Positions 4,785-64,000 of a DNA stretch of 64,000 nucleotides are shown here, piece by piece (within the stretch, counting starts at the first letter, position 1; the number at the start of each line of letters is the position of its first letter). Location of the stretch: contig CAXHJY010001225.1 in the NCBI GenBank assembly GCA_964016885.1, positions 38,332-102,331 on the forward strand, in the 5' to 3' direction. The DNA is from Eledone cirrhosa (lineage: Eukaryota). Below the pieces are notes generated by a model. It worked only from the letters and a program-made list of their open reading frames with translations. It did not search any database and had not been told where the DNA came from. The position numbers and the translations under genes are program-made.

Positions 4785-4837
<53 letters not shown>

Positions 4838-4957
4838 AAAGTTATATTTAAATTGTTGGGTTACAACTAGTAAATATTTATAACTGATATAAAAGCACTC
4901 GACAAGTATTTGGAGTATATTTACGATATTAAATAAATGGAAACTATATTTATAAAA

Positions 4958-5037
4958 CCATATTTATTTCATTATATATATTTCAGGGATATCATATTAA
5001 CAATATGCTATGCCTTCCTCAGACAAAATACAATATA
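4958..5037 (-). ncRNA. Minimal type I hammerhead ribozyme (PLE pLTR)
   Basis: tattttgt-CTGAGGA-agg...catattgttaatatg...cct-GAAA-tatata-TA-atgaaata. Confidence 0.75.
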
Positions 5038-5471
5038 AACAGTTTTATAGATAAATAGATTCGACATACCGTAACAACATCGACTTGTATTTGAAAGAGT
5101 TGAATTGGCAGTGAAAAAATTGTACACAGAGAGAAAGAAAGAGAGAAAAAAGGAAAGAAAGACAGAAAACGAAGAAAAAGAAGAAAAAGAAGAAATACAT
5201 GGAACAAAATAGAGAGATGGAAAGATAGATAAAGAGAAGAACTTCATGTAAAGAAGCAGAGAGAGATATATATATAGAGAGAGAGAGGAAATAGAGATAG
5301 ATACATATATATAGAAAACTAGGTAGTGGGACGTCCGTTGAGTAAACGTATCAATGATATATTTATTTATTTATTTATTTATTTATTTAGCTCTAGTATT
5401 AATGTAAGGGAGATATATGGAGAGAAACCAGCTGTTATATAGAGAGAAAAATTTAAAAAGCATCTTGTATA

Positions 5472-7201
5472 ATGCACGAGTTGGAAATTGAGAACAGAAC
5501 ACAACCTTTCGTGCCCAGGAAACCGAAGATCAATATGAAAGATCACAAGAGGAATTTTGAAAATGACTTGCCAGTTAGATTGATCGCACCATCAAAATCG
5601 GACCTGGGCAAATTAAGCAAAAACATTCTTGACAGGGTGATACAGCAAATTAAGAACTTGGATTGTTTATCTAACCTGAGCTTGTGGAAGGTAACTGGAG
5701 AGGTTGTTGAGTGGTTTAAGCAAATTAGATATAACAATAATAATAAGTTTATTCAACTTGATATAGCTAACTATTATTCTTCTATTACCCCTAATCTACT
5801 AAATAAGGCACTAAATTACGCATTCAAACATACTGACCTAACTAGCAATGAAATGCATATTATATTATCGGCTAGGAAAACTTTGATAGAATTTAATGAC
5901 CAACTATGGACCAGAGCAGATAGAGATAGCAATTTTGACATTACTATGGGATCATCCGACTCAGCTCAGGTAACTGACCTTGTGGGCTTATTTTTAATCA
6001 ATTCGCTACATAGGAAAATACCTGGTACTACCGGAGGTTTATATAGAGATGACATGCTTTTACTTATTGATAATAATAACTCTGAACTAAATAGAAAATG
6101 TAAACAAATTACACAATTTTTTAATTACTTTAATCTTAAAATAGAAATTGAGAACAACCATAGAATAGTCAATTTCCTAGATATAACATTAAATCTCAAC
6201 ACATGTCTTCACTATCCTTTTCACAAGTTGAATGAAAACTTAAACTATGTCAACTTTAACTCTAACCACCCCAGATCTGTCAAAAACACTATAGTAAACT
6301 CTGTTCAAAAACGTATCTCTAGGATCTCGTCGAATAGAAAGATTTTCGACGAAAAAGCCCAATACTACAATGAAACATTAGCTAGAGCAGGATATGCTGA
6401 TAAGATTGTGTACATAGATAATGATAGACAAACTAAACAAAATAACAACTATTTTAATTACGGCAACAACCTTAACAACTATAATAGAAAGCATTACAAT
6501 AATTCCAAAGGCCAAAAAAGAAATAGAACTAGGAACATAATTTGGTTTGCCCCCCTTTCTCACTAAACATTAAAACCCACATCGCTAAACTATTTTTTAA
6601 AGCTCTTGATAATCGCTTCCCTAGAACACATAGGTATCACTCAATTTTCAATAGACATACAATAAAATTAACCTACTCATCCACCAAAAATTTAGCACAA
6701 AATATTAATAGAATAAATAATAGGAACTTAAAACCTAGTGATAATAGCATAAATAATATACAAGTTAACAAATGTAACTGTAGAGATAGATCTAAATGTC
6801 CGTTAAATAACAACTGCTTAGTTAAAAATATAGTATACAATTGTAATGTTAATACTGACTCTAATTCTTTTAACTACGTCGGTTCCACATCGACGGAATT
6901 TAAACTTCGCTATAATAACCACAAGAATTCTTTCACAGATCCAAGCAAAAAATCTTCAACGGCACTATCAGGCGTACTCTGGCAACTTAAGCTAGATAAC
7001 GTTAGATATTCGACGGCTTGGAATATAGTCTCAAGAGGGATTCCTTTTAATTCATCCTCTGAGACATGTGACCTCTGCGCAGAGGAGATATTCTTTATAC
7101 TAAAATCTAAAAATTCCCTTAATCTACGGACAAATTTATTCAGTTGCTGCAAACATAGATTAAACTCAACGTTTAAATATAAATTTAAATTTAAAATGTA
7201 G
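5472..7201 (+). pseudogene. 5'-truncated PLE polyprotein: reverse transcriptase plus C-terminal GIY-YIG endonuclease, one frameshift at ~6550
   Basis: ORF 5472-6566: KFIQLDIANYYSSI, FDITMGSSDSAQVTDLVG, GGLYRDDML, VNFLDITL, SNHPRSV; ORF 6542-7201: CNC..CPL..CLVKNIVY, YVGSTSTEFKLRYNNH, CDLC..E..LN. Confidence 0.9.
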
Positions 7202-8525
7202 TATATTTAGTTTGATTTATAATTATATGGGAAACTAGCCGATAAATCTTTGATTTCTTCTTTTTATTCTTTTTATTTTTATTTTTATTTTTATTTAAAT
7301 ATTCTTCATGAAAAATTAAGCTACCCTAAAAGTTGATGCTCCAAATATTTCGAATAAACGTTACACTAGATAAACTTCTATATTAAATATAAGAACACAT
7401 GTAGACCAAATGGGCATCCTAAACTTTTTGAAATGATCTTTGCTAGATGCGATTTGATAGATAATTTTTGGCTTTATCTGTTTTTCGACTCTGATGCTTA
7501 TAATGAACTTGGCAATATATTGTCAATTAATTTTGAAGGGTTGATCTTTGTGGTTTATTTTTATTTTTATTATTGTAGTATTTTCTAATATTTTTATTTT
7601 AATATTTTTAATATGTAATATTTTTAATATGTAATATTCTTTCGTAATATTTTTTAGTTTTCTATTTTATTATTACTTATTATTATTATTGTTATTTTTT
7701 AGTTTTGTTTCTGATATATATTTTTATTAGTATATTGAAATCTGCTCTCTATTTCTGCTTGATAGATAATCTTGTAGAGTAAAGACAGGAATAGTACTAA
7801 TATTGACTCTATATATATTTGTGTGTATATATATACACATATATGTATACTTAAATATTTATACCACAATGAGAATGTTTTCCGTGAACTTAGGGTTTGC
7901 AGAGTTGATCATGTAAATTCACATAGATGTTTGTAGTTATCACATAAACATATGAATTTTTTAAAAAAACTAAACATAAGATCATTAATTTTCACACATA
8001 TTGGATACATGTCTCATTCAGGAATACTGATATTTACAATATAGTGGCTGGTTTTTATACATACTAATACCTCTACATTAAAACATAGGGTTTTTACGCC
8101 TCGCCTATGTCTGGTTATTTTTAAATTTTTCTCTATATATAACAGCTGGTTTCTCTCCATATATCTCCCTTACATTAATACTAGAGCTAAATAAATAAAT
8201 AAATAAATAAATGTATCATTGATACGTTTACTCAACGGACATCCCACTACCTAGTTTTCTATATATATGTATCTATCTCTATTTCCTCTCTCTCTCTATA
8301 TATATATCTCTCTCTGTTTCTTTACATGGAGTTCTTCTCTTTATCTATCTTTCCATCTCTCTATTTTGTTCCATGCATTTCTTCTTTTTCTTCGTTTACT
8401 GTCTTTCTTTCCTTTTTTCTCTCTTTCTTTCTCTCTGTGTACAATTTTTTCACTGCCAATTCAACTCTTTCAAATACAAGTCGATGTTGTTACGGTATGT
8501 CGAATCTATTTATCTATAAAACTGT

Positions 8526-8606
8526 TTATATTGTATTTTGTCTGAGGAAGGCATAGCATATTGTTAATATGATATCCGTGAAATATATATAATGAAATAA
8601 ATATGG
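8526..8606 (+). ncRNA. Minimal type I hammerhead ribozyme (PLE pLTR)
   Basis: CTGAGGA at 8542, GAAA at 8580, palindromic stem III tatata, stem I tattttgt/atgaaata. Confidence 0.7.
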
Positions 8607-8636
8607 TTTTATAAATATAGTTTCCATTTATTTAAT

Positions 8637-9326
<690 letters not shown>

Positions 9327-9814
9327 ATTGTTATACTTTGGGAGGGTCATGTTGCCAATAAGAAACACACGCACCAGTTGCTTTCACTTCAATTTATTAT
9401 ATATTTATAAATTTATAAATTTATAAATCTATAAATTTCTGGTTGGTTGGTTGGTTCCACAACCAGATAGTTGTTTATATATAGTCATAGTTCTTTCGTC
9501 ACACACTCTGTGACCTCTTCAGTGACTGGGGATTCCTTTCTTTGTTTCTGTGCCTCTCCTTTGTTCTGTCCTACACAGAGTGTGTGACGAAAGAACTATG
9601 ACTATATATAAACAACTATCTGGTTGTGGAACCAACCAACCAACCAGAAACTTATAGATTTATAAATTTATAAATTTATAAATATATAATAAATTGAAGT
9701 GAAAGCAACTGGTGCGTGTGTTTCTTATTGGCAACATGACCCTCCCAAATATAACAATACCGGTTTCAACACACGATTTCAGATAAAGAATCTTGCTAAA
9801 CAAATTCAGAAACG

Positions 9815-9816
<2 letters not shown>
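9327..9816. mobile_element. Non-coding fold-back PLE derivative, related to the terminus of the Nematis-like family
   Basis: Arms 9327-9512 and 9574-9759; tail 9760-9816 homologous to the reverse complement of 28547-28592; in (TA)n. Confidence 0.85.
9482..9527 (-). ncRNA. Minimal type I hammerhead ribozyme
   Basis: agtca-CTGAAGA-g-gtcac-agagtgt-gtgac-GAAA-gaac-TA-tgact. Confidence 0.85.
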
Positions 9817-11109: not shown

Positions 11110-12715
11110 GATAATATGTATAATAATATATATATATAAATATGTAAATAAATAAATGCCTTTTTGCTTTGATTTCATGCTTCAGAAAAGGTTTGACATT
11201 ACAAAAGGAAACACAGATAAGCTATAGCCATCTGTTATGAAAATCCTTTTTATTTTCATTTTTTAGGTTGTGCGGTTTAGAAGTAGACGTCACTATCATG
11301 TTGTTCCTTGTTAATTTCATTGCATTGCATGTTGGACATGCGTCTTATACCATAGCTGTGTCAAAACGAAGCCTTATGAACGAAACTGTGTAGTCAGAAT
11401 CTGCGGGAAAATGAGTCGGTTGGCTTGTGTATGTTTTTGTTTGGTCTATAAATAGTCTAAACTTCGAAATTAAAGGTACACCACGCCAAACTCCAATCCA
11501 AATTCTTGACAGGACATCAGTCCTTCAAAATGTTAAACTCATACCTGTTCATTTTTTAAAATTTTAGTTGAGTGGGTGGAGAAATGTGAAAGGGCCTTGC
11601 GCGTGGACAAATCACGCCGCCTGTTTTAGGAATGGAAACCCTGACTTTACATGAGGCTACCACTATATTCATTACGTCACGTGCTATACATGGCAGAGTT
11701 ACTTAATCGAGCATCCAGTTATCCGCACTACCTCGCTTATCGTTTCCTTCAACTGAATATACATAAATCTTTCTTCAACCATTTACGCAGGTCATGCAAA
11801 TGCATCACAGGCGCTGTCATTTCTTGCACCATAAAAACAACATAACATTTCAAATTGCTGCAGTGATTGCCATGGATATGTAGGAGGTTAGATAGTATAT
11901 AAAATATAATAGGAATCGTTTTATTATTTCCAGAGCATTTGCAACTTGTTGGCCACTCATTCTATCATTACCCATATTGTTTCAGTCTATCTAGACGTGT
12001 ACTAACCACCACCTAAGACCACCGGCTTTTGGAATTTCCTTAGCGCATATATTTTCCCTGACAGACCCCAATTTATGACTATTTAAAAGGATATCTAACT
12101 GTGTCGGTATTACCGGTCAGGAAGGTCTGGGGGGTGTATTTGATTCAGCCTGAAAATTGTATTTGCATGAAACCTTCAGATAAACCCAATTTTTAAAAAC
12201 GTACGATGGCTTGACAGAAAAGGTAGAGTGATGAATGAAATATGTTGACGTATATAAGGTGTGAAGCAATGAAATGAACCGGAAAACACGCGAGAGTAAC
12301 GTCTGCTTCGAAAACATTCGAACTATAAAAAGTATGTTCATAACAACAAATATCTATAGCTATGTGTATGTCTCTCTGTGTGAAGTCGTAACTCTCTTGG
12401 ACCATGAAATCAAAGCAAAAATATATTTCTTTCTTTATGTATATATGTTATAAATATTAATATATTTATTATATGTATCTATTCAATGGGTCCGATGATA
12501 AAACTGAGCATATCTGGGTCAACTTTAACTTTCATCGGTCTGTTGACGGTAAAATAAAATGCACATCAAGTAACAGGGCCGGATTAATCAACTATACACA
12601 TTTACTAATACCCAATTTGGTAGAAATCAGTAATACTTCCCTGTGTATAATTTTGAGGGCTGAATTGAATTTACTCAACTATACCCACCTCGAAACGTGC
12701 TTCAACACTATCATT

Positions 12716-13002
12716 ATGGCAGTATCAGTAGAGCGTCGGACGCCATGCTTTCCAGCATAGTTACGGCCCTTTACGATCTGAGTTCAAATCCGGCCGAGGT
12801 TAACTTTGCCTTTCATCCTTACGGGGTCGATAAAATAAAGTACCAGTAATGCACTGGGTAATTGCTGGCCTTGTGCCAAAAGTAGAAACAATTATTATGG
12901 CAGTATCGGTAGAGGGTCGAGCGCCATGCTTTGTAGCTAGAGTTACAGCCTTTTATGATCTGAGTTCATATCCCGACGTGGAAAACTTTGCCTTTCATCC
13001 TT
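12716..13002 (+). mobile_element. Two tandem tRNA-derived SINEs (12716-12895 and truncated 12896-13002)
   Basis: Each starts tatggcagtatc(a/g)gtagag and has gagttca(a/t)atcc followed by gcctttcatcct. Confidence 0.8.
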
Positions 13003-14110: not shown

Positions 14111-15380
14111 TGTTTCTTTTATTTGCCACCAGGGCATCAAAAGTGGGACAAGTACAAAGGGGGGAGTTTACACAAAAAGGCGTCCTCAATAAGGAGGAGG
14201 CAATAACAAAATATAAAAATAAAATAAAATATAACAAAAAATAAAATTTATAACAAAATCCTCAATAGAGAGGAGGCGCCTTGGGGGTCGCACACACCCC
14301 CGAAAAAAGTGTGCAACCCTTTTCCTCAGGAGCACAGAGAGGGGGTGCTCCCTCGTTCCTTCCTCTTTTCCACCTACAGGCTTATGTAAAGTGAAGGCCC
14401 ATTCACACGGGCCATTCTCGCCACTTTCACCCACCTTTCATAAAAACGACTGGGGTGGAGCACCTCTCTCTCCATCCTGATCCTTCTTCCGAAATGATAT
14501 CGGAAGAAACGGACCAGTTGTTGGCCAGAGAGAAAGGTGCCTGACCTCAGTCCTTTCAGACGCGTCCACCATACAACCTCTTTCGCCATGGCTATTACGC
14601 ACAGAAACACCGCCTCTGCTTCATCTTTGAATGGGGGAGGCGGCTTGATCATTACAATAGACTCGGTGGTCAACCGGATCGGTCCCACCCTTGACAGCAG
14701 TTGTTCGACATAGCCCCACAGATCGGCTACGCCCGAGCAGTGTACCAATGCGTGTGCAACGGTTTCCTCGTCGCACACGCATCTAGGACAGATCTTTTTG
14801 GCGGGGTCCCTACCCGGGCGCCCGTGTCTGTAGAGCCTTTCTCGAATGGGTAAAGACCCTCGGTAGCACTGCCAGGCCAGGGACTTCTGGAAGTTGTCCA
14901 TAGGTCCCGGGCTGAATGTCCTACCGAACAGGCTGGCCAGTTCGTCCTCCTCCATGTCTAGGGCTTCTCCGAGGGCGTCGTCGCACCTGCTGCGTACCAG
15001 CCCTCTATAGAATGTTGCGGTGGAGTCTCCACTGATAACCCGATCCGCCTGCCAGAGGGCGGTGAGCGCCTGGGCACACTCAGTGTGCCAGGCGCCCAGT
15101 TTTCTCGGTCTTTGCTTGACCCAGGATTGCAGCTCGGTGAGTGAGACGAGTCTGGGAAAGGTTCGTCTCACAAACGAGGCCCACACCGGTTGACCGGTGA
15201 GGAATACGTAGAGGTGCCGTAGCCTTAATGCGTGTTTACGCATCATTAGCCACGGCATCCCCAGCCCTCCTTTCGAAGGGTGTTGACAGCAGATGGATCT
15301 CCTCACCATAGGAGCCCGCCTCTTCCAAAGGAATTGGAAGAGTGCGCGCTCCATCTTGGTGAGGGTTTCCCTTGGGCATA
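14111..15380 (-). mobile_element. 5'-truncated Tx1/L1-type LINE inserted in a (GATA)n tract
   Basis: ORF 14374-~15380 with GGLGMP, LAWQCYRGSLPIRERL and the CCHC knuckle CPRC...ETVAHALVHC; AATAAA near the 3' end; (AGAT)n/(AGAC)n on both flanks. Confidence 0.85.
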
Positions 15381-15552
15381 GACAGACAGATACGTAGATA
15401 GATACATACATACATGCACATACAAACATACATACATACTTACATACATACATGCATACATACATCAAGAAATTCGTAGATACAAACATATATTCATGCA
15501 AGCATATATATATATATATGTTTGTTTCATTCATTAATTATATTATATATAA

Positions 15553-15617
<65 letters not shown>

Positions 15618-15619
<2 letters not shown>

Positions 15620-15807
15620 AAAGGAATTGTGGCAAGAAACCAGATGGACCATAACGCACCAGAATACTCAATACTTAGGGTATTAGAGTAGGAAATAGGA
15701 AAAAGTATGAACCCGACAGCAGAGCTCAAGCCGTTTCGACGGATATTTCAGTCCAGAAATAGCCGTCGAAACGGCTTGAGCTCTGCCGTCGGGGTCATAC
15801 TTTTTCC
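15618..15807. mobile_element. ~190-bp fold-back mini-element (half-HHR family), tail on the left
   Basis: Arms ~15695-15749 and 15756-15810; contains GAAACGGC-ttgagctct-GCCGTC; in (TA)n. Confidence 0.85.
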
Positions 15808-15823
15808 TATATATATATATATA

Positions 15824-15930
15824 TGAAAAATTTGGGGAGAAGAATACTGCATGGTTGCACATGGATTACATGTTATAAAATGAGTCCCTCATCAGTGATT
15901 TGCCAACGATCATTGGTATTTCATCGCATT
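15824..15930 (-). mobile_element. 3' fragment of the ~530-nt non-coding family
   Basis: Highly similar to 51298-51402. Confidence 0.75.
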
Positions 15931-16175: not shown

Positions 16176-16266
<91 letters not shown>

Positions 16267-16437
16267 GGAAAATGTTTAACCCCGACGGCAGAGCTCACGC
16301 CGTTTCGACGGCTATGAGAAATAGCCGTCGAAACGGCTTGAGCTCTGCCGTCGGGGTTAAACATTTTCCTATTACCCACTCTACTACCTACTCTGTATGC
16401 GTTATGGTCCATCTGGTTCCTTACCACACTTCCTTCA
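16267..16437. mobile_element. Fold-back mini-element (half-HHR family), tail on the right
   Basis: Arms ~16264-16313 and ~16320-16371; same GAAACGGC...GCCGTC motif. Confidence 0.85.
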
Positions 16438-16454
16438 TTATATATATATATATA

Positions 16455-16544
16455 GTTATACTTGGGGAGGGTCATATTTGTGTAATATTGCCAGAATTAA
16501 TATTTGTTTCGACACACGATTTCATATAAAAAATCTCGCTAAAC
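16455..16544. mobile_element. 90-bp inverted-junction fragment of the Nematis-like PLE terminus
   Basis: 16455-16502 matches 28593-28640; 16499-16544 matches the reverse complement of 28547-28592; AATA microhomology at the junction. Confidence 0.85.
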
Positions 16545-16563
16545 TATACACATATATATATAC

Positions 16564-16606
<43 letters not shown>

Positions 16607-16655
16607 AATATATATATACATATATATACATATATATATATATACATATATATAC

Positions 16656-16708
<53 letters not shown>

Positions 16709-16757
16709 TATATATATATATAATATAAGATCAAAAGATGGTTAAAAGAGTTCCAAG

Positions 16758-22479: not shown

Positions 22480-22985
22480 ACAGACTTCTACCCACTCATA
22501 CAGACTTCTACCCTACCGCGTAGAAGTCTGTATGAGTAGATCGAGAAGTTTAAGAGTGGTCGGACAAGCGTGATGCACGAAGAAGGAGCAGGACATCTGT
22601 CAACCTCCACCATTGACGAGAAGATTCAGCAAGCCCGACAGATGGTAATGGCAAACCGGCGAGTTATCATCGATGAGGTAGCATGTTCTCTGCAGATTAT
22701 TTATGGTGCTGCCTATCAAATCATCAACGACGAGCCCGGTTTCCATAAAGTCTGTCGGAAATGGGTGGAAAGAGAGTCAACGGTAGAGCTAAAGCGCAAA
22801 CGAATTGAGGTCTGCCAATGGTTCTTTCACCACTACAACTGTCGCCGTTTTGTGTTAAAAGCCTCCGATGATTTACAGCCACTGACACTTTCCAATCAGA
22901 GAAATCGGATCACTGCTCTTTGGTCCTGCATGCTGCACACGGCTAGCGGAGCAGCCATGTTTACACTGTAACAGCAGCAAGAAAA
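22480..22985. mobile_element. Mariner transposase N-terminal fragment with an internal inversion
   Basis: Plus strand 22520-22835: KFKSGRTSV..G..STS..RRVIIDEVA..GFHKVCRKWV (WVP-like); minus strand 22835-22960: QDQRAVIRFL..HRRLL. Confidence 0.75.
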
Positions 22986-23292
22986 CTGGAACAATCAAAA
23001 ACAATAATAATGATATTGATAATAATCGTTATAATTATCATCACCTTCAACATCGATTATAATAATAATACTGATGGTGAACCAATCAGGAAAATTTGTG
23101 AAACCGGTAAAGTTAAAAATGATTGCAAATAAAGACTTCAATGGAAGACTCCAATTGCATTTATGTATATATGTGTGTGTGTATATATATATATATATTG
23201 TCACTGCCTCTGTCTTCATATATATATGAGGGCAGAGGCAGTGACAAACCTAACCTAAAGATATGTTATGACAAAAGCGTTGCCATAACCTT

Positions 23293-23471
<179 letters not shown>

Positions 23472-25282: not shown

Positions 25283-25570
25283 TGTCTGATTCTTTCCTCA
25301 CGCACACTTTGACCAGGTCGGATGGTCTTTATTCTCTCTCGTCTACGATTTCACAGAACTTATGTTCATTGATTTCAGGGACTTGACTCCTTCTTCCTCA
25401 CTTTTCGTTGCTTTACCATCTTTGATTGTTTACTGTCCGGCTCGTTCCCCTTATTTACGTGTCCCAACGACTTTCTTTAGCCGTTGCTCGCACCAACCGG
25501 AGGTATATAGTCTTTAAAGCGATGAAATACCAATGAAGGTTGGAAGATCACTGATGAAGGACTAAATTTA

Positions 25571-25574
<4 letters not shown>
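25283..25574 (+). mobile_element. Diverged 3' half of the ~530-nt non-coding family
   Basis: Colinear with the reverse complement of 53778-54050; ends ttattca|tata. Confidence 0.7.
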
Positions 25575-26935: not shown

Positions 26936-27810
26936 ATTGGCAGTATGCTTTGAAGCATAGAGTTACGTCTCTTTATGATCTGAGTTCAAATCCCGCCGAG
27001 GTTAACTTTTCCTTTCATCCTTACGGGTCATTAAAATAAAGTACCAGTTATGTACTGGGTTTTTGCTGGCCTTGTGCCCGAAATAGAAACAATTATTAGA
27101 CTATATTAGAGTCAAAGATATTACGGCGAAGCTTCTATTTCTATTTCAATATATATAACAACTCTCTATGTTCTGAGGTCAAATCCCACCGAGGTTGACT
27201 TTGCCTTTCATCCTTACGGGGTCGATAAAATAAAGTACCAGTAATGAACTGGGTAATTTGCTGGCCTTGTGCCTAAAGTAGAAACAAATATATATAACAA
27301 CAACAACAACAAAGACGATGACGTCGACAACAACAACAGCAACAACAAAGACGACGACAACAACAACAACAATAATAATAATGATTTCTGATTTTGGTAC
27401 AAGGCCAACACAACAACATTGGGACGGGCAAATATCGCTTAAATCGACCCCAGTGCCTACTGGTGTTACATTTTATTGATCCCGTAAAGATGAAAGGCAA
27501 AGGTAACCTTGGTGGGATTTGACCTCAGAACATAGAGAGATGTAAATATATACCACAATGCATATTGTCAGACGCTCTACCGATACTGCCAATACTAATA
27601 ATGATATGAACCAATCAGCAAAATAAACAATAATTGTACGTGACTGATTGGTTCATCATCAGTAGAGGGTTGGATGCCATGCTTTGCAGCATAGAGTTAC
27701 GGCTCTTTAGTGTGTGAGTTCAAATCCCACCGAGGTCAACTTTGCCTTTCATCCTTATGGGGTCGTTAAAATAAAGCACCAGTAATACACTCGGGTAATT
27801 GCTGGCCTTG
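26936..27810. mobile_element. Cluster of four tRNA-derived SINE copies (+26936-27097, +27168-27288, -27383-27595, +27655-27810)
   Basis: Repeated gagttcaaatccc..cgagg..aactttgcctttcatcctta.ggggtcg core. Confidence 0.8.
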
Positions 27811-27826
27811 AAATAACAATGTATAG

Positions 27827-28230
27827 ATGAATATATGTATAGTATATTTGGCAATATACCGTATGTTTAATTAAAAACATTTTGAAGACCTTCCGCTATC
27901 ATTTTTAAAGTAGTCACTATGTCACTTACTTTTTTTTTTTCGGCAAAGGAAGGGAGAGAATCTGACAGATTCTATTTCACAATCAGTTCCTGATTATTAC
28001 TTGAATTATATAAAAATGCAGCCTCTATAATTTTCGGCAAAGGCGGGGAGTACGATTCTCTAAGGATCACCAACAGTGTGAAACAGAATCTGTCAGCTTC
28101 TCCCCCTTCCTTTGCCGAAAAAAAGAAGTAAGTAACATAGTCACTACTTTCGAAATGATAGCGCAAGGTCTTCAACATGTTTTTGATTAAACATACGGTA
28201 TATTGCCAAATATACTATGCATACATTCAT
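27827..28230. mobile_element. Fold-back non-coding PLE/retrozyme-related element
   Basis: Arms 27827-27980 and 28077-28230; HHR-like motif in the right arm. Confidence 0.8.
28031..28121 (+). ncRNA. Hammerhead with mutated core (CTAAGGA)
   Basis: Stem I ttttcggcaaagg/cctttgccgaaaa, CTAAGGA at 28060, stem II cac/gtg, GAAA-cag-aat-ctg-TC. Confidence 0.65.
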
Positions 28231-28426
28231 ATATATGCATATATATATATATATATATAATAAATAAATACAATATCGGAGAAAGCTTTTTAGCGATACT
28301 GCGGCCAAATTCCAACTCACTCAACAAACATTAGGAAATAAGTGATTATATTCCCAATTATGTGTTCGGGGTGCTAACTAAAAGTATTGCGTGGAAAATT
28401 GGCTGTATTATTTCAAATGAGACATA

Positions 28427-28531: not shown

Positions 28532-28799
28532 ATATATATATATATAGTTTAGCGAGGTTTTTTATATGAAATCGTGTGTCGAAACAGATATTGTTATACT
28601 TGGGGAGGGTCATATTTGCGTAATATTGCCAGAATTAATAACAGAACACACTCACTGTTTGGTTGGTTTTCGCTTCTCGCTGTCTTTTATATCTGCGATC
28701 TAACTTACTCGGTCCTCAATGTTGCCATTGACTGACCGACGGTCAAAAATAATACAGATACAATATAGACACAAACACATATATATAGTTTACATAATT

Positions 28800-28845
28800 T
28801 ACATAAATCTTTCGTTGCACATCTGCAACATCGTCAGTGGTGCTA
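28800..28845 (-). ncRNA. Hammerhead core (weak stem I)
   Basis: CTGACGA-t-gttgca-gatg-tgcaac-GAAA-gatt-TA. Confidence 0.6.
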
Positions 28846-29365
28846 TATTCTTTGTTCCTCCTGTTGTGTTGTATGCCTACGCCATTTTTTATTCAGTCTG
28901 TCTATATATTTATTTATTTATTTGCTTGTTTGTTTATCTTATTTTATTTTGTCTTCTTTGCGCATGCGTTTGCGTGTGTGTATAGTGTTATGTGTGCTGT
29001 GTGACTAGTGTGTATAGTGTTGTGTCTGCTGGGTGGCTAGTGTGTGTTTATGTGCTTGTTGTTATTGTGCTTGTGTATGTATTTATTTATCTTATTTTAT
29101 TTTATTTTATTTACTTACTTATTTATACTTCTCTTAGGTCAGTGTTGTTTGTTTGGGTGTTGTTGTTGTTCCACTCATTCTTTCTGTTTAGCTTTGGTCT
29201 TCTAATTTCTATTTCACTGGCCTCTCTGATTTGCCTATCTGCTGGGTCATTCCTATGTTTAGATATTATTCTAATTTCTATGTTGTCTATGTTACCGTCA
29301 TGTTGTCGTCTAGCATGTTCGTATAGTACTGACCAATTTTTTTGTCCTTTTAGTTCCCCCCAGTG

Positions 29366-31155
29366 TTAGTCTATCCTTTCACCTATGCTACGAGCTGTCT
29401 CACCTATGTATGTTGTTGTCATGTTTCTGCAAGTACCCTCTGTACATCTTATGCTATAGACTACGTTTCTAGTTTTACAGTTTATCCGGGGGTTCACCTT
29501 ACATATGATACATTTCCTATTGGTACAGTGGGTTTTCTTAAAAGGGTAGGTTTTGCTGATCAGGGATTTTATGGTGGTTCCTGACTTTTCTACCACCTTT
29601 ATTTTTAAGTGGGTCTTTCTCAGGGCCTTTCTACACTGGTTAGCTAATTTCCCTCCAGGGGTGGCGTCCACAAACATGACACTCTGATATCTCTGGTTGT
29701 CGTACCATGATGTGGCCTTCCCTATCTTATGTCTAGCCCTATCTAAGCTATTCCATGATTTGCTCCTGTATAGTGGGCAAATTCCTTTCATGTCCAGTTC
29801 TATGAGGGTCTTATACTTTTCCATGGCTCCTTCGTATACTCTGACTCTGTCTCTTTGGTTGTAGCCAGAGAACTGCATGCGGTTGATGAAGTGTTGGATG
29901 TGTCCTTCCATTTCTGTTGGGTCGCACATGCTGGACACATTCTTCATCACTCGTACCAAATCTGCGATCAGAATATTAAACTTAGCACTACTGGACATTG
30001 CTGAGTGTTTGAGTATCAGGTATTTGGAGGCCATGGGCTTAGCATAGTGTGAGTGGAGAATTTGGGCTCTCTCGTCTATAGTGTTAATCCAGAGTTCTGT
30101 GTCTAATACAGGTAGTCTATTGTTAGGGTGTTTGGAAGGGAAGTCGATAGTTACAGTTATACTCTGGTGTATGGAATTAGCTATCTGCTGGATGCTTTCC
30201 ATCGTGCTACGTTCTAAATCAAACTTGTTAGTGCTCTCTAGTGGGGGTGTTCTTATAACTATATTGATATCGTCTACATAACGAGAGTACATGATGAGGT
30301 CTATGGAGCTTTCATTAAGGAGATCTTTAAGTCTCCTTTCCCACCATACCATGAAAAGGTTGGCAACATCACCAGCTATGCTGATGCCGATGGCTGCTCC
30401 CTCATTTTGGGTGTAGATTTTCTCATTGAACTTAAATATGTGGCCCTTTAGGGTAGTTTTGATACTAGCCCCTATTGCATGTGCGACCATTTTTCTTACC
30501 TGATCAGTATTTTGGGGGGTCCATATAGCTTTGGTCCACCCAATCCACTTTACTATGGGAGTCTTTTTAGCCATTGAGGTTATGGTGGGGGGTCTACCTC
30601 TTATAGGTCTACTAGGGCAGAAACATCTAAGGTCATGGCTGTCTATGTAGTCGGTGTCGTAGGTAAGTCTAAGTAGGAGGCCCAGTTCGTCTGTGTCGAC
30701 GTCGCAGAACTCCACCTCACTCTCAATGATCATCTCCACACATCTTTTCACAGCAAAATCAATGTTAATGGATGGGTACAGTGACACCACATCCATGCTG
30801 CCTATTATGCAGTTGGATAGGCTCCTGTTTTTGTTGCACTCACTGATTCTGCTGAGGAGGTCCTCTGTACTTTCACATACATCTGGGGACATCTTGATTA
30901 TGGGGCGTATAACCATTGAGAGGAAGTAGGAGATCCTGTAGTTGCTAGCTATATTAGCTCCGCATACGGGTCTTGTTGGTGGTCCTGTTGTCGGGTCGTC
31001 GACTGTCTTGTGGTCTTTGCGGAGCCCATACAAGGGTGGTATGCCATTGTTAGATGCCTGGAAGTTGTTGGCAGTGCGTCTGCTTGGCTTTAGGATGTCA
31101 GTCCACATCCTCATGTGAGCGTTGAGGATTTTTTCTCTCCCATCGTGTGGGAAAA
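29366..31155 (-). CDS. 5'-truncated PLE RT plus GIY-YIG ORF, open over ~590 codons
   Basis: PPLYGLRKDHK, RPVCGA, GSMDVVSLYPSI, GAAIG..AG..ANLFM, YSRYVDDI, LPVLD, YAKPMAS, C..C..CKTRNVVY..C..YIGETARSIGER. Confidence 0.85.
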
Positions 31156-31177
31156 AATGGCATACCACCCTTGTATG

Positions 31178-33060
31178 GGCATACCACACTTGTATGGGCT
31201 CCGCAAAGACCACAAGGCAGTCGACGACCCGACAACAGGACCACCAACAAGACCCGTATGCGGAGCTAATATAGCTAGCAACTACAGGATCTCCTACTTC
31301 CTCTCAATGGTTATACGCCCCATAATCAAGATGTCCCCAGATGTATGGGAAAGTACAGAGGACCTCCTCAGCAGAATCAGTGAGTGCAACAAAAACAGGA
31401 GCCTATCCAACTGCATAATAGGCAGCATGGATGTGGTGTCACTGTACCCATCCATTAACATTGATTTTGCTGTGAAAAGATGTGTGGAGATGATCATTGA
31501 GAGTGAGGTGGGGTTCTGTGACGTCGACACAGACGAACTGGGCCTCCTACTTAGACTTACCTACGACACCGACTACCTAGACAGCCATGACCTTAGATGT
31601 TTCTGCCCTAGTAGACATATAAGAGGTAGACCCCCACCATAACCTCAATGGCTAAAAAGACTCCCATAGGAAGGTGGATTGGGTGGACCAAAGCTATACG
31701 GACCTCCCCAAAACACTGATCAGGTAAGAAAAATGGTCGCACATGCAATAGGGGCTAGTATCAAAACTACCCTAAAGGGCCACATATTTAAGTTCAATGA
31801 GAAAATCTACACCCAAAATGAGGGAGCAGCCATCGGCGTCAGCATAGCTGGTGATGTTGCCAACCTTTTCATGGTATGGTGGGAAAGGAGACTTAAAGAT
31901 CTCCTTAATGAAAACTCCATAGACCTCATCATGTACTCTCGTTATGTAGACGATATCAATATAGTTATAAGACCACCCCCACTAGAGAGCACTAACAAGT
32001 TTGATTTAGAACGTAGTACGATGGAAAGCATCCAGCAGATAGCTAATTCCATACACCAGAGTATAACTGTAACTATCGACTTCCCTTCCAAACACCCTAA
32101 CAATAGACTACCAGTATTAGACACATAACTCTGGATTAACACTATAGACGAGAGAGCCCAAATTCTCCACTCACACTATGCTAAACCCATGGCCTCCAAA
32201 TCTCCAAATACCTGATACTCAAAAACTCAGCAATGTTCAGTAGTGCTAAGTTTAATATTCTGATCGCAGATTTGGTACGAGTGATGAAGAATGTGTCCAG
32301 CATGTGCGACCCAACAGAAATGGAAGGACACATCCAACACTTCATCAACCGCATGCAGTTCTCTGGCTACAACCAAAGAGACAGAGTCAGAGTATACGAA
32401 GGAGCCATGGAAAAGTATAAGACCCTCATAGAACTGGACATGAAAGGAATTTGCCCACTATACAGGAGCAAATCATGGAATAGCTTAGATAAGGCTAGAC
32501 ATAAGATAGGGAAGGCCACATCATGGTACGACAACCAGAGATATCAGAGTGTCATGTTTGTGGACGCCACCCCTGGAGGGAAATTAGCTAACCAGTGTAG
32601 AAAGGCCCTGAGAAAGACCCACTTAAAAATAAAGGTGGCAGAAAAGCCAGGAACCACCATAAAATCCCTGATCAGCAAAACCTACCCTTTTAAGAAAACC
32701 CACTGTACCAATAGGAAATGTATCATATGTAAGGTGAAACCTCGGATAAACTGTAAAACTAGAAACGTAGTCTATAGCATAAGATGTACAGAGGGCACTT
32801 GCAGAAACATGAAAAACAACATACATAGGTGAGACAGCTCGTAGCATAGGTGAAAGGATAGACCAACACTGGGGGGAACAAAAAGGACGAAAAAAACGGG
32901 TCAGTACTACACGAACATGCTAGACAACAACATGACGGTAACATAAACAACATAGAAATTAGAATAATATCTAAACATAGGAATGACCCAGCAGATAGGC
33001 AAATCAGAGAGGCCAGTGAAATAGAAATTAGAAGACCAAAGCTAAACAGAAAGAATGAGT
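31178..33060 (+). pseudogene. Second, frameshifted copy of the same RT/GIY-YIG ORF
   Basis: ORF pieces 31115-31642, 31679-32128 and 32233-32832 are near-identical to the minus-strand ORF. Confidence 0.9.
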
Positions 33061-33387
33061 GGAACAACAACAACACCCAAACAAACAACACTGACCTACG
33101 AGAAGTATAAATAAGTAAGTAAATAAAATAAAATAAAATAAGATAAATAAATACATACACAAGCACAATAACAACAAGCACATAAACACACACTAGCCAC
33201 CCAGCAGACACAACACTATACACACTAGTCACACAGCACACATAACACTATACACACACGCAAACGCATGCGCAAAGAAGACAAAATAAAATAAGATAAA
33301 CAAACAAGCAAATAAATAAATAAATATATAGACAGACTGAATAAAAAATGGCGTAGACATACAACACCACAGGCGGAACAAAGAATA

Positions 33388-33432
33388 TAGCACCACTGAC
33401 GATGTTGCAGATGTGCAACGAAAGATTTATGT
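33388..33432 (+). ncRNA. Hammerhead core (weak stem I)
   Basis: CTGACGA at 33396, stem II gttgca/tgcaac, GAAA at 33420. Confidence 0.6.
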
Positions 33433-33636
33433 AAATTATGTAAACTATATATATGTGTTTGTGTCTATATTGTATCTGTATTATTTTTGACCGTCGGTCA
33501 GTCAATGGCAACATTGAGGACCGAGTAAGTTAGATTGCAAATATAAAAGACAGCGAGAAGCGAAAACCAACCAAACAGTGAGTGTGTTCTGTTATTAATT
33601 CTGGCAATATTACGCAAATATGACCCTCCCCAAGTA

Positions 33637-33749
<113 letters not shown>

Positions 33750-35225: not shown

Positions 35226-35290
35226 TTTTTCCATTCTGATGATTGAAAGCAAATTTGTTTGCTTTCAAGAAACCACTGGTAAATGAAATA
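35226..35290 (+). ncRNA. Type I hammerhead ribozyme
   Basis: catt-CTGATGA-ttgaaagcaaa...tttgctttcaa-GAAA-ccactgg-TA-aatg. Confidence 0.9.
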
Positions 35291-35381
35291 ATCATCTTAT
35301 GTTGTTTATTACATAACTAATAAGCTCTTTAACCTACATAGAGCACTCTTTTTTCCTGGACTTTTCCGACGGAATTACTTC

Positions 35382-36309
<928 letters not shown>

Positions 36310-36440
36310 ATAAATGCTCTGAAATAGCGATATATATGTGAAGATAGACATAGAATATTCGAAAATATTCTGTATGTTTATAATAAACATTTTGAAGACC
36401 TAATCGCTATAGAATAGAATACGTCACGTATTACAATTAG

Positions 36441-36529
36441 ATTCTCGATAAAAGCAAGGGAAGTAACCTACGCGTTTCATTCTTATTAGAAATCTTCAGG
36501 ATTACATATCCAGTGCTTTTATCGAGAAT
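36441..36529 (-). ncRNA. Retrozyme hammerhead
   Basis: Reverse complement of the motif at 36895. Confidence 0.9.
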
Positions 36530-36894
36530 GGCACAGCTAGAGACTTATAGAATACTTAGCTGTGTACAGGAACTGGTTTGAAAGAGCGGTTGCCGGTCCG
36601 GCAGAAATTAGAAATTGGAATAAATGCTCTGAAATAGCGATATATATGTGAAGATAGACATAGAATATTCGAAAATATTCTGTATGTTTATAATAAACAT
36701 TTTGAAGACCTAATCGCTATAGAATAGAATACGTCACGTACAGAATATTTTCGAATATTCTATGTCTATCTTCACATATATATCGCTATTTCAGAGCATT
36801 TATTCCAATTTCTAATTTCTGCCGGACCGGCAACCGCTCTTTCAAACCAGTTCCTGTACACAGCTAAGTATTCTATAAGTCTCTAGCTGTGCCA

Positions 36895-36982
36895 TTCTCG
36901 ATAAAAGCACTGGATATGTAATCCTGAAGATTTCTAATAAGAATGAAACGCGTAGGTTACTTCCCTTGCTTTTATCGAGAAT
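36895..36982 (+). ncRNA. Retrozyme hammerhead
   Basis: attctcgataaaagca..gtaatc-CTGAAGA(36924)-tttct-aata-agaat-GAAA-cgcg-TA(36954)-ggttac..tgcttttatcgagaat. Confidence 0.9.
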
Positions 36983-37204
36983 CTAATTGTAATACGTGAC
37001 GTATTCTATTCTATAGCGATTAGGTCTTCAAAATGTTTATTATAAACATACAGAATATTTTCGAATATTCTATGTCTATCTTCACATATATATCGCTATT
37101 TCAGAGCATTTATTCCAATTTCTAATTTCTGCCGGACCGGCAACCGCTCTTTCAAACCAGTTCCTGTACACAGCTAAGTATTCTATAAGTCTCTAGCTGT
37201 GCCA

Positions 37205-37292
37205 TTCTCGATAAAAGCACTGGATATGTAATCCTGAAGATTTCTAATAAGAATGAAACGCGTAGGTTACTTCCCTTGCTTTTATCGAGAAT
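37205..37292 (+). ncRNA. Retrozyme hammerhead
   Basis: Same motif 310 nt downstream (CTGAAGA at 37234). Confidence 0.9.
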
Positions 37293-37393
37293 CTAATTGT
37301 AATACGTGACGTATTCTATTCTATAGCGATTAGGTCTTCAAAATGTTTATTATAAACATACAGAATATTTTCGAATATTCTATGTCTATCTTC

Positions 37394-37456
<63 letters not shown>

Positions 37457-37900: not shown

Positions 37901-37905
37901 ATATA

Positions 37906-38094
37906 ACGAAGGAGGTGTGGTAAGGAACCAGAAGGACCATAACGCACCAGATTACTCAATACTTAGGGTAGTAGAGTGGGTAATAGGGAAATGTCGTGAC
38001 CCTGATGGCAGTGCTCCAGCCGTTGCGACGGCTATTTCTGGACCAGAAATAGCCGTCGAAATGGCTCGAGCTCTGCCGTTGGGGTCAAATATTT

Positions 38095-38097
<3 letters not shown>
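37906..38097. mobile_element. Fold-back mini-element (half-HHR family), tail on the left
   Basis: Apex gacggctatttctgg-a-ccagaaatagccgtc; homologous to 15618 and 16267. Confidence 0.85.

Positions 38098-41568: not shown

Positions 41569-44605
<3,037 letters not shown>

Positions 44606-61961: not shown

Positions 61962-64000
<2,039 letters not shown>

Follow-up and report, generated by a model that had tools for sequence, protein, structure and literature searches.

A 90-base PLE-derived insert in Eledone cirrhosa probably joins copies made from two fixed start sites

For Penelope-like elements (PLEs), cleavage and extension of both target strands, with two start sites that bound the tail, have been reported in vitro for an element of the anole (accessible part of PMC11167929). 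That two start sites define the tail is thus already published and known (PMC11167929). The accessible part of that article gives no word on whether the two sites share one RNA or serve the two opposite strands in a single event; its in vitro observations stop at initiation. The origin of PLE inverted repeats with a one-sided tail is stated as an open question in the available portion of PMC8557442. In one-RNA twin priming of L1, a deletion was found in 66% of cases and a duplication in 17%, the latter with a median of 22 bp (excerpts of bioRxiv 10.1101/2024.08.27.596794). Our search, which left subscription papers including older Penelope reviews outside its scope, found no paper proposing twin priming or a one-RNA model for PLEs.

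The locus considered here lies in a 64-kb stretch of Eledone cirrhosa DNA, the whole of which was analysed and is called the window. A 90-base PLE-derived insert at 16455-16544 sits between (TA)n-type tracts, and the feature is confirmed. The first-pass annotation had taken it for a PLE terminus in which 48 inverted bases are joined through AATA to 46 further bases with no duplication; the assignment is borne out by matches to the left end of a larger element in the window (family A), and the geometry by 47/48 and 44/46 identical positions. The features of the insert are as follows.

16440-16454, no strand: left (TA)n target tract, ~15 nt, directly after the tail end of an unrelated family-B insert (16266-16439)
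16455-16502, plus strand: antisense arm, 48 nt, from the internal start site (the bar); 47/48 to 28593-28640
16499-16502, no strand: AATA microhomology at the inversion junction, the same as the first 4 nt of the tail
16499-16544, minus strand: tail, 46 nt; 44/46 to the reverse complement of 28547-28592
16545-16728, no strand: right (TA)n tract, imperfect, read from the window sequence

Both matches, that of the arm to the plus strand of the window (BLAST E 1e-15) and that of the tail (E 1e-14), are far beyond chance. The AATA is common to the two parts (48 + 46 - 4 = 90), and since the base 5′ of it differs from the reference, zero bases upstream of the bar are duplicated; the join is “exact” in the sense of lying within the 4-nt microhomology. 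A target-site duplication is unreadable in the (TA)n flanks, which on both sides correspond to the AT-rich or microsatellite target of endonuclease-bearing PLEs. The insert differs from the reference at 3/90 positions, two of which, the substitutions in the tail, are silent on translation of the frame that follows an ATG upstream of the bar; with so few changes, it may be young. The arm would be the cDNA primed from the top target strand; the minus strand of the tail would be the other cDNA, for which the bottom target strand served as primer at the distal site. The insert is a real PLE scrap whose two halves were probably copied from two fixed starts and then joined; it is a rare outcome among its many neighbours, and by itself it is no proof that both copies came from one RNA.

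The parent element of the insert and its other relatives in the window comprise the following features.

28547-33640, no strand: reference family-A insertion with head-to-head arms; tail (28547-28592) at the left end only
29366-31157, minus strand: 5′-truncated PLE ORF with RT, CX4CxxC linker and GIY-YIG-type endonuclease
28802-28837, minus strand: hammerhead-like core, ~210-245 nt upstream of the bar, whose stem II has 6 bp; from our own pattern scan
9330-9816, no strand: diverged family-A′ insertion; palindrome that continues ~200 nt past the bar, with a tail of 61 nt on the right side alone
61778-61956, plus strand: family-A arm, 149 nt from the bar, no tail; then two inverted 12-nt copies, then TA

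In the parent copy a single ORF encodes an RT and, C-terminal to it, a GIY-YIG endonuclease, and the copy is inverted and 5′-truncated with a tail that is optional and at one end, both as in canonical endonuclease-bearing PLEs. The ORF has one in-frame stop near its C-terminus, and the opposite arm carries several indels. Its RVT_1 match (E 1.3e-4) is below the Pfam cut-off, and the 83-aa endonuclease piece in the window gave no Pfam hit; the protein aligns over its full length with homologues that bear GIY-YIG hits (P0080 above the Pfam cut-off, P0013 below it), and its closest named homologue, from Octopus vulgaris, is 68% identical. A sequence search of the PDB returned two weak bacterial RT matches only and no PLE structure. 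The CX4CxxC linker and the CCHH motif, of which two cysteines fall within the endonuclease core and the downstream histidines beyond the in-frame stop, agree with the Neptune/Nematis pattern (CX2-5CxxC before GIY-YIG, and CCHH) given in the available portion of PMC8557442. By these motifs, family A is classed as a Neptune/Nematis-type PLE, an assignment that takes Neptune and Nematis together. Membership of the Hydra clade (CxCX5C linker, no CCHH) was considered and is ruled out for family A by its CX4CxxC linker. The window also holds a second PLE family, D (4835-8638 and 44604-47705), with a CxCX5C linker, the Hydra-type motif, and an 88-nt tail.

A 22-codon frame starts at an ATG located 21 nt upstream of the bar and runs through the tail; no comparable ORF start was seen in eight homologues, and the true N-terminus lies outside the window. 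The hammerhead-like core of family A′ (starting at 9522, minus strand) has a different stem II in which pairing is kept; in the cores of both A and A′ stem II pairs, and stems I and III are weak. Rfam returned no hammerhead family for 28547-29300 at E 10 (one chance match) and, for the whole window, only sub-threshold microRNA-type matches among the best 150 of 431. RNA folding of five stretches around the bar, the tail and the hammerhead-like core gave no significant structure in any (5/5; z -0.17 to 0.68), and we therefore make no claim of a stem-loop for the start sites. At the centre of the large family-A palindrome is a tandem duplication of ~20 nt (31158-31196).

The bar and the distal end are fixed start sites of the family. 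The bar is identical in 4/4 family-A/A′ ends, namely those at 16455, 33640 and 61778 and the diverged one at 9330; the distal start, 46 nt from the bar, is shared by 16544 and 28547 and lies 15 nt further out in the diverged copy 9330-9816. Families B (three copies) and D (two copies) likewise have both start sites in common within each family. At 2/4 family-A bar ends, 4-5 nt of the flank match the template. A short TA-like run tends to precede the internal sites (8 families, match sum 19 versus ~7 expected, P 0.003, a weak test in which boundaries were scored by eye and matches by hand), a tendency that partly accounts for AATA adjoining the bar. An assembly or read chimera was also considered. 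Palindromes and (TA)n tracts are prone to error, and the several indels in the right arm of the large family-A copy fit such an origin; the insert has three private substitutions relative to its nearest copies and ends on both sides exactly at start sites of the family, and a chimera is accordingly very improbable. In 61778-61956, the 12-nt copies are template bases starting one base past the end of the arm, and the join lies at the centre of a short interrupted palindrome; of the four copies of the 12-mer in the window, two belong to the reference arms and two to this end. That end may be an abutting inversion at a site other than the tail, and templated repair insertion explains it equally well.

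Fourteen inserts in the 64-kb window are bounded by TA and have both a tail and an inversion, and these were scored. They are listed by family and start position.

Families A/A′ and B: A 28547, A′ 9330, A 16455; B 15617, 16266, 37905
Families C, D and E: C 53777; D 4835, 44604; E 23199
Families G, H, I and J: G 36305; H 34265; I 57343; J 61957

Self-BLAST of the window was run masked, as microsatellites swamp the matches otherwise. Left out of the fourteen were 27809-28239 (left end not at TA), 11146-12436 (old, with one end not placed), 51865-52540 (left end inside another element), internal hairpins away from TA such as 57093-57244, and 61778-61956, which lacks a tail. Three flags of symmetry were rejected, one that fell on two separate family-B inserts whose diagnostic sites differ and two that arose from a TA run inside the family-G unit.

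In 13/14 inserts the tail-bearing arm runs ~24-2565 nt past the bar (lengths entered by hand and accurate to ~10 nt), and only the 16455 insert stops there. The first-pass annotation had proposed a check of whether the tail-side breakpoint is fixed at the internal site; across the window it lies there in 1/14 inserts and in 1/3 family-A/A′ inversions, and it is therefore not fixed at the bar. A scan of 56 segments between TA runs for non-overlapping inversions yielded seven pairs, the 16455 insert twice, four among SINE-like repeats and one overlapping family-N case, with no second case that has a tail; nor did any insert show a gap ahead of the bar. Non-overlapping inversions can be seen only in families with another copy in the window, so their true share may be higher.

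The tail is at one end only in 14/14 of these inserts, and among 36 inverted pairs examined none is a true TA-to-TA symmetric palindrome. Under an independent 50:50 choice of site at each end, one-sidedness throughout has P 6e-5 counted by insert and 2e-3 counted by the nine families. The arms of one insertion also group together, at 15/15 informative sites in family D and at 3/3 and 2/2 in family B; the family-A arms have zero sites informative for a shared source.

A join through microhomology would mark where the two ends annealed rather than where reverse transcription stopped, because annealing followed by trimming of a 3′ flap, as expected from end-joining mechanics, would set only a lower bound on the length of the cDNA. 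The earlier reading, in which the distal cDNA stopped exactly at the bar, went further than such a join allows. An internal cDNA that ends in AATA at 48 nt has only three sites to pair with (46, 70 and 81), the bar among them, over the distal cDNA's first 300 nt. Under four rough length models, the probability of at least one join within a 5-nt interval is 0.12-0.31 among the 14 inserts and 0.06-0.08 among the three family-A/A′ inversions, so that a single exact join at the bar is compatible with chance (P 0.12-0.31). Distinct products with at least 4 nt of microhomology and with both cDNAs at most 100 nt long end exactly at the bar in 2/44 cases, versus 1% if the ends were uniform; for junctions lying 0-4 nt from the bar, microhomology leads one to expect ~2-5%.

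These figures are also consistent with the use of two RNAs, each subunit of a dimer having its own; the two cDNAs would then have met at the bar by chance, through an AT-rich microhomology. This reading shares everything but the number of RNAs with the preferred one, in which two target-primed cDNAs were joined at integration, so its likelihood overlaps with that of the preferred reading and is not to be added to it. Two templates would give kilobase overlaps with no strand displacement, and the anole protein is predicted to form a dimer, its start sites having been alike on the two strands (accessible part of PMC11167929). Independent site choice predicts that half of the inserts be symmetric, however, where 0/14 are, and the arms of one insertion have one source; the reading survives only as an asymmetric dimer with RNAs loaded in cis, and we consider it unlikely. 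For the preferred reading, coupling of site choice is inferred from the one-sided tails (14/14) together with the same-source arms, although arms of one source could also stem from fold-back, from gene conversion or from subfamilies whose activity differed in time.

The lengths of the two arms carry further information. Eight inserts have a central spacer that can be oriented, and in six of them the arm that starts at the bar is the longer one; four others are near-symmetric at the centre, and the family-H spacer is not orientable. In the 16455 insert, too, the bar-start arm is the longer. This predominance is consistent with priming at the distal site alone, in which the distal cDNA runs for 94 nt, its AATA end folds back to pair with the cDNA's own TATT next to the bar, and the tail is copied once more; nicking at the bar would then open the hairpin so that it could be joined to the remaining target end. 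One distal cDNA folded back and nicked in this manner would yield the same 90 bases, and later fold-back points would give a palindrome plus tail. Fold-back with a nick predicts one-sided tails and accounts for arms of one source; ATT, the motif most cut by the anole enzyme, directly precedes the bar on the cDNA strand, and both self-priming (PMC3846280) and resolution of the tail by the endonuclease (PMC8557442) are published proposals, as far as the available portions of these articles go. The model requires, however, that the bar-start arm be at least as long as the tail arm, and it fails in 2/8 orientable inserts, where the tail arm is longer by ~108 nt (family A, 28547) and by ~1.9 kb (family D, 44604). 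In the family-A reference, the tail-bearing arm reads ~2565 nt through the bar, and the spacer that makes up the difference (~31050-31157) is genuine ORF on the tail arm. Initiation from nicked DNA was, moreover, observed in vitro to occur directly at each of the two sites (accessible part of PMC11167929). Fold-back from a single primer is thus improbable. The longer tail arms at 28547 and 44604 mean that two cDNAs are needed, although they could also come from later deletion.

Any palindromic copy has its hairpin base at the bar, and a later collapse therefore predicts the same breakpoint. In such a collapse, a palindrome-plus-tail insert would have lost its centre by slippage or repair between direct AATA repeats, one at the hairpin base and the other 44-48 nt inside the opposite arm. 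Thirteen of the 14 inserts scored are palindromes of this kind; the AATA abuts the bar, which also fixes the tail-side breakpoint there, and it recurs in the arm at 34 and 48 nt. Pausing of a polymerase at a hairpin base after a first direct repeat, followed by re-annealing to a second, is described in the available portion of PMC4134008. Against a collapse, palindromes with arms of up to 2.5 kb and short spacers survive in the same window, the second repeat lies inside the stem, so that partial melting would be required, and an insert changed at so few positions may be young; we regard this origin as distinctly unlikely. The first-pass annotation had held the 90-bp insert to be the cleanest support in the window for dual priming, a position that is not supported, as hairpin slippage and fold-back with a nick break at the bar as well. 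The discriminating evidence sits in 28547-33640, in 44604-47705 and in the one-sided tails rather than in the 16455 insert.

Taken together, two independently primed cDNAs are the best model for 16455-16544, and formation of the 90 bp at integration, from two target-primed cDNAs joined at AATA, is probable. Under this model, a Neptune/Nematis-type PLE would integrate into a (TA)n tract, its GIY-YIG endonuclease nicking both target strands as shown in vitro for another PLE. The RNA would offer two internal priming sites separated by 46 nt, the bar being used by one nicked strand and the distal site by the other, with site choice coupled so that each end receives one; in the simplest form, both primers would be on one RNA or in one asymmetric particle. 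In the usual case, the distal cDNA would pass the bar, either by displacement of the other cDNA or on a second template, to give a palindrome plus tail, and the two cDNA 3′ ends would anneal at a short microhomology before fill-in. For the 16455 insert, the internal cDNA would have been ~48 nt long, its AATA end annealing to the TATT that abuts the bar. That the distal cDNA stalled at the bar is somewhat unlikely, and that it ran further and was then trimmed is a tentative possibility; the sequence of the insert cannot separate the two, and within the integration model the chances that the distal RT halted at the internal primer are about even. One-sided tails, longer tail arms and same-source arms fit two cDNAs from one RNA, or from one asymmetric particle, with routine read-through. 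Against this reading, the overlaps past the bar in 13/14 inserts imply that priming on one RNA would need long strand displacement; that neither inserts with a gap ahead of the bar nor significant RNA structure at the two sites were found likewise weighs against it. We put forward, as a conjecture, that PLE integration may be obligatory one-RNA twin priming at two hard-wired sites, one per target strand, in which the distal RT would usually displace the internal cDNA for tens to thousands of bases to leave a head-to-head palindrome with a one-sided tail; the 90-bp insert would then be a rare collision product and 61778 a second abutting inversion, at an unscheduled site.

Other elements in the window were observed alongside. 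The short family-B palindromes (15617-15808, 16266-16439 and 37905-38097), with tails of 69-81 nt, have nearly coincident centres, which suggests either that a hairpin in the template acts as a hot spot for junctions or that the master copy is palindromic. Family E (23199-23293) is a 95-bp insert consisting of a palindrome with 24-bp arms centred on a TA run and a 47-nt tail, and its join may have used a self-complementary TATA box. The family-G insert (36305-37394) is built of a non-coding tandem unit of 310 bp that carries a hammerhead-like core; it has a tail of 34 nt, its inverted arms show 100% identity, and it looks like a young retrozyme-type passenger. Family C (51299-51860, 53777-54413, 15827-15930 and 25285-25574) has a non-coding unit of ~480-530 nt and is present as distal-only, internal-only and inverted insertions. 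Family N (51863-52540) has a tandem unit of ~480 nt that carries a hammerhead-like core (at 52254), and its left end, short and inverted, lies within a family-C fragment; it is possibly a third case of a longer tail arm. A further hammerhead-like core, with a 12-bp stem II, lies at 35228-35300; the insert that contains it is similar to family H in its left part. Two more insertions of PLE type, at 57343-60522 and 61957-63344, have a tail on one side and spacers that code for endonuclease. A non-LTR element ORF fragment lies at 14374-15537 (minus strand; zf-RVT match just under the Pfam cut-off), and a SINE-like repeat family of 100-190 nt occurs in mixed orientations at 299-482, 1503-1654, 12707-13002 and 26938-27810. 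A degenerate frame at 22540-22971 (plus strand), which we take to resemble the N-terminus of a mariner-type transposase, gave no Pfam hit.

In terms of known systems, Poseidon of Anolis carolinensis resembles the present case in that two internal starts bound the tail, both strands are cut and extended and the target is AT-rich (accessible part of PMC11167929). The two differ in clade architecture, family A having the linker zinc finger, and in that the same part of the article reports no primer homology for Poseidon, whereas 4-5 nt of flank match at half of the family-A bar ends. Penelope, Adineta Pen2a and Naiad are reminiscent of the window's elements in their inverted-pLTR and one-sided-tail structure with a 5′-truncated inverted copy, and further in a tail that may continue the ORF start, an AT-rich or (TA)n target and an upstream core that may be hammerhead-like (available portions of PMC8557442 and PMC3846280). 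The family-A ATG and its frame through the tail likewise recall pLTRs that contain the ORF start (available portion of PMC3846280). Unlike these endonuclease-bearing elements, the 16455 insert has no overlap of its arms. Tails of 30-40 nt are given in the available portion of PMC8557442; the tail here is 46 nt, within a window range of 30-88 nt, and those of families B, D and H (~80-88 nt) are about twice the length given there.

Twin priming of L1 shares with this locus an inverted 5′ part, microhomology at the junction (here AATA, 4 nt), near-abutting breakpoints and, probably, two target-primed cDNAs (excerpts of PMC2912911, PMC11702581 and bioRxiv 10.1101/2024.08.27.596794). In the same excerpts, the first L1 primer sits on poly(A) and the second site is variable, whereas here there is no poly(A) and both sites are internal and fixed per family. 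Overlap is the rule here (13/14), in contrast to the short minority outcome that it represents in L1 (17%, median 22 bp; Fisher P 1e-9), and abutting breakpoints with mostly small deletions, as in L1, are found only at 16455 (1/14). As two features that define the L1 process fail, the insert is not classed as L1-type twin priming, despite the like geometry. The lone 90-bp case adds little, and the window points to genome-wide counts as a test of the open mechanism: with 14 scorable inserts per 64 kb, Octopus-type genomes would allow the models to be separated by counting symmetric versus one-sided inserts, the identity of the longer arm and any pile-up of junctions at the bar. If both primers act on one RNA, twin priming would be the normal route of PLEs, as opposed to the accident that it is in L1.
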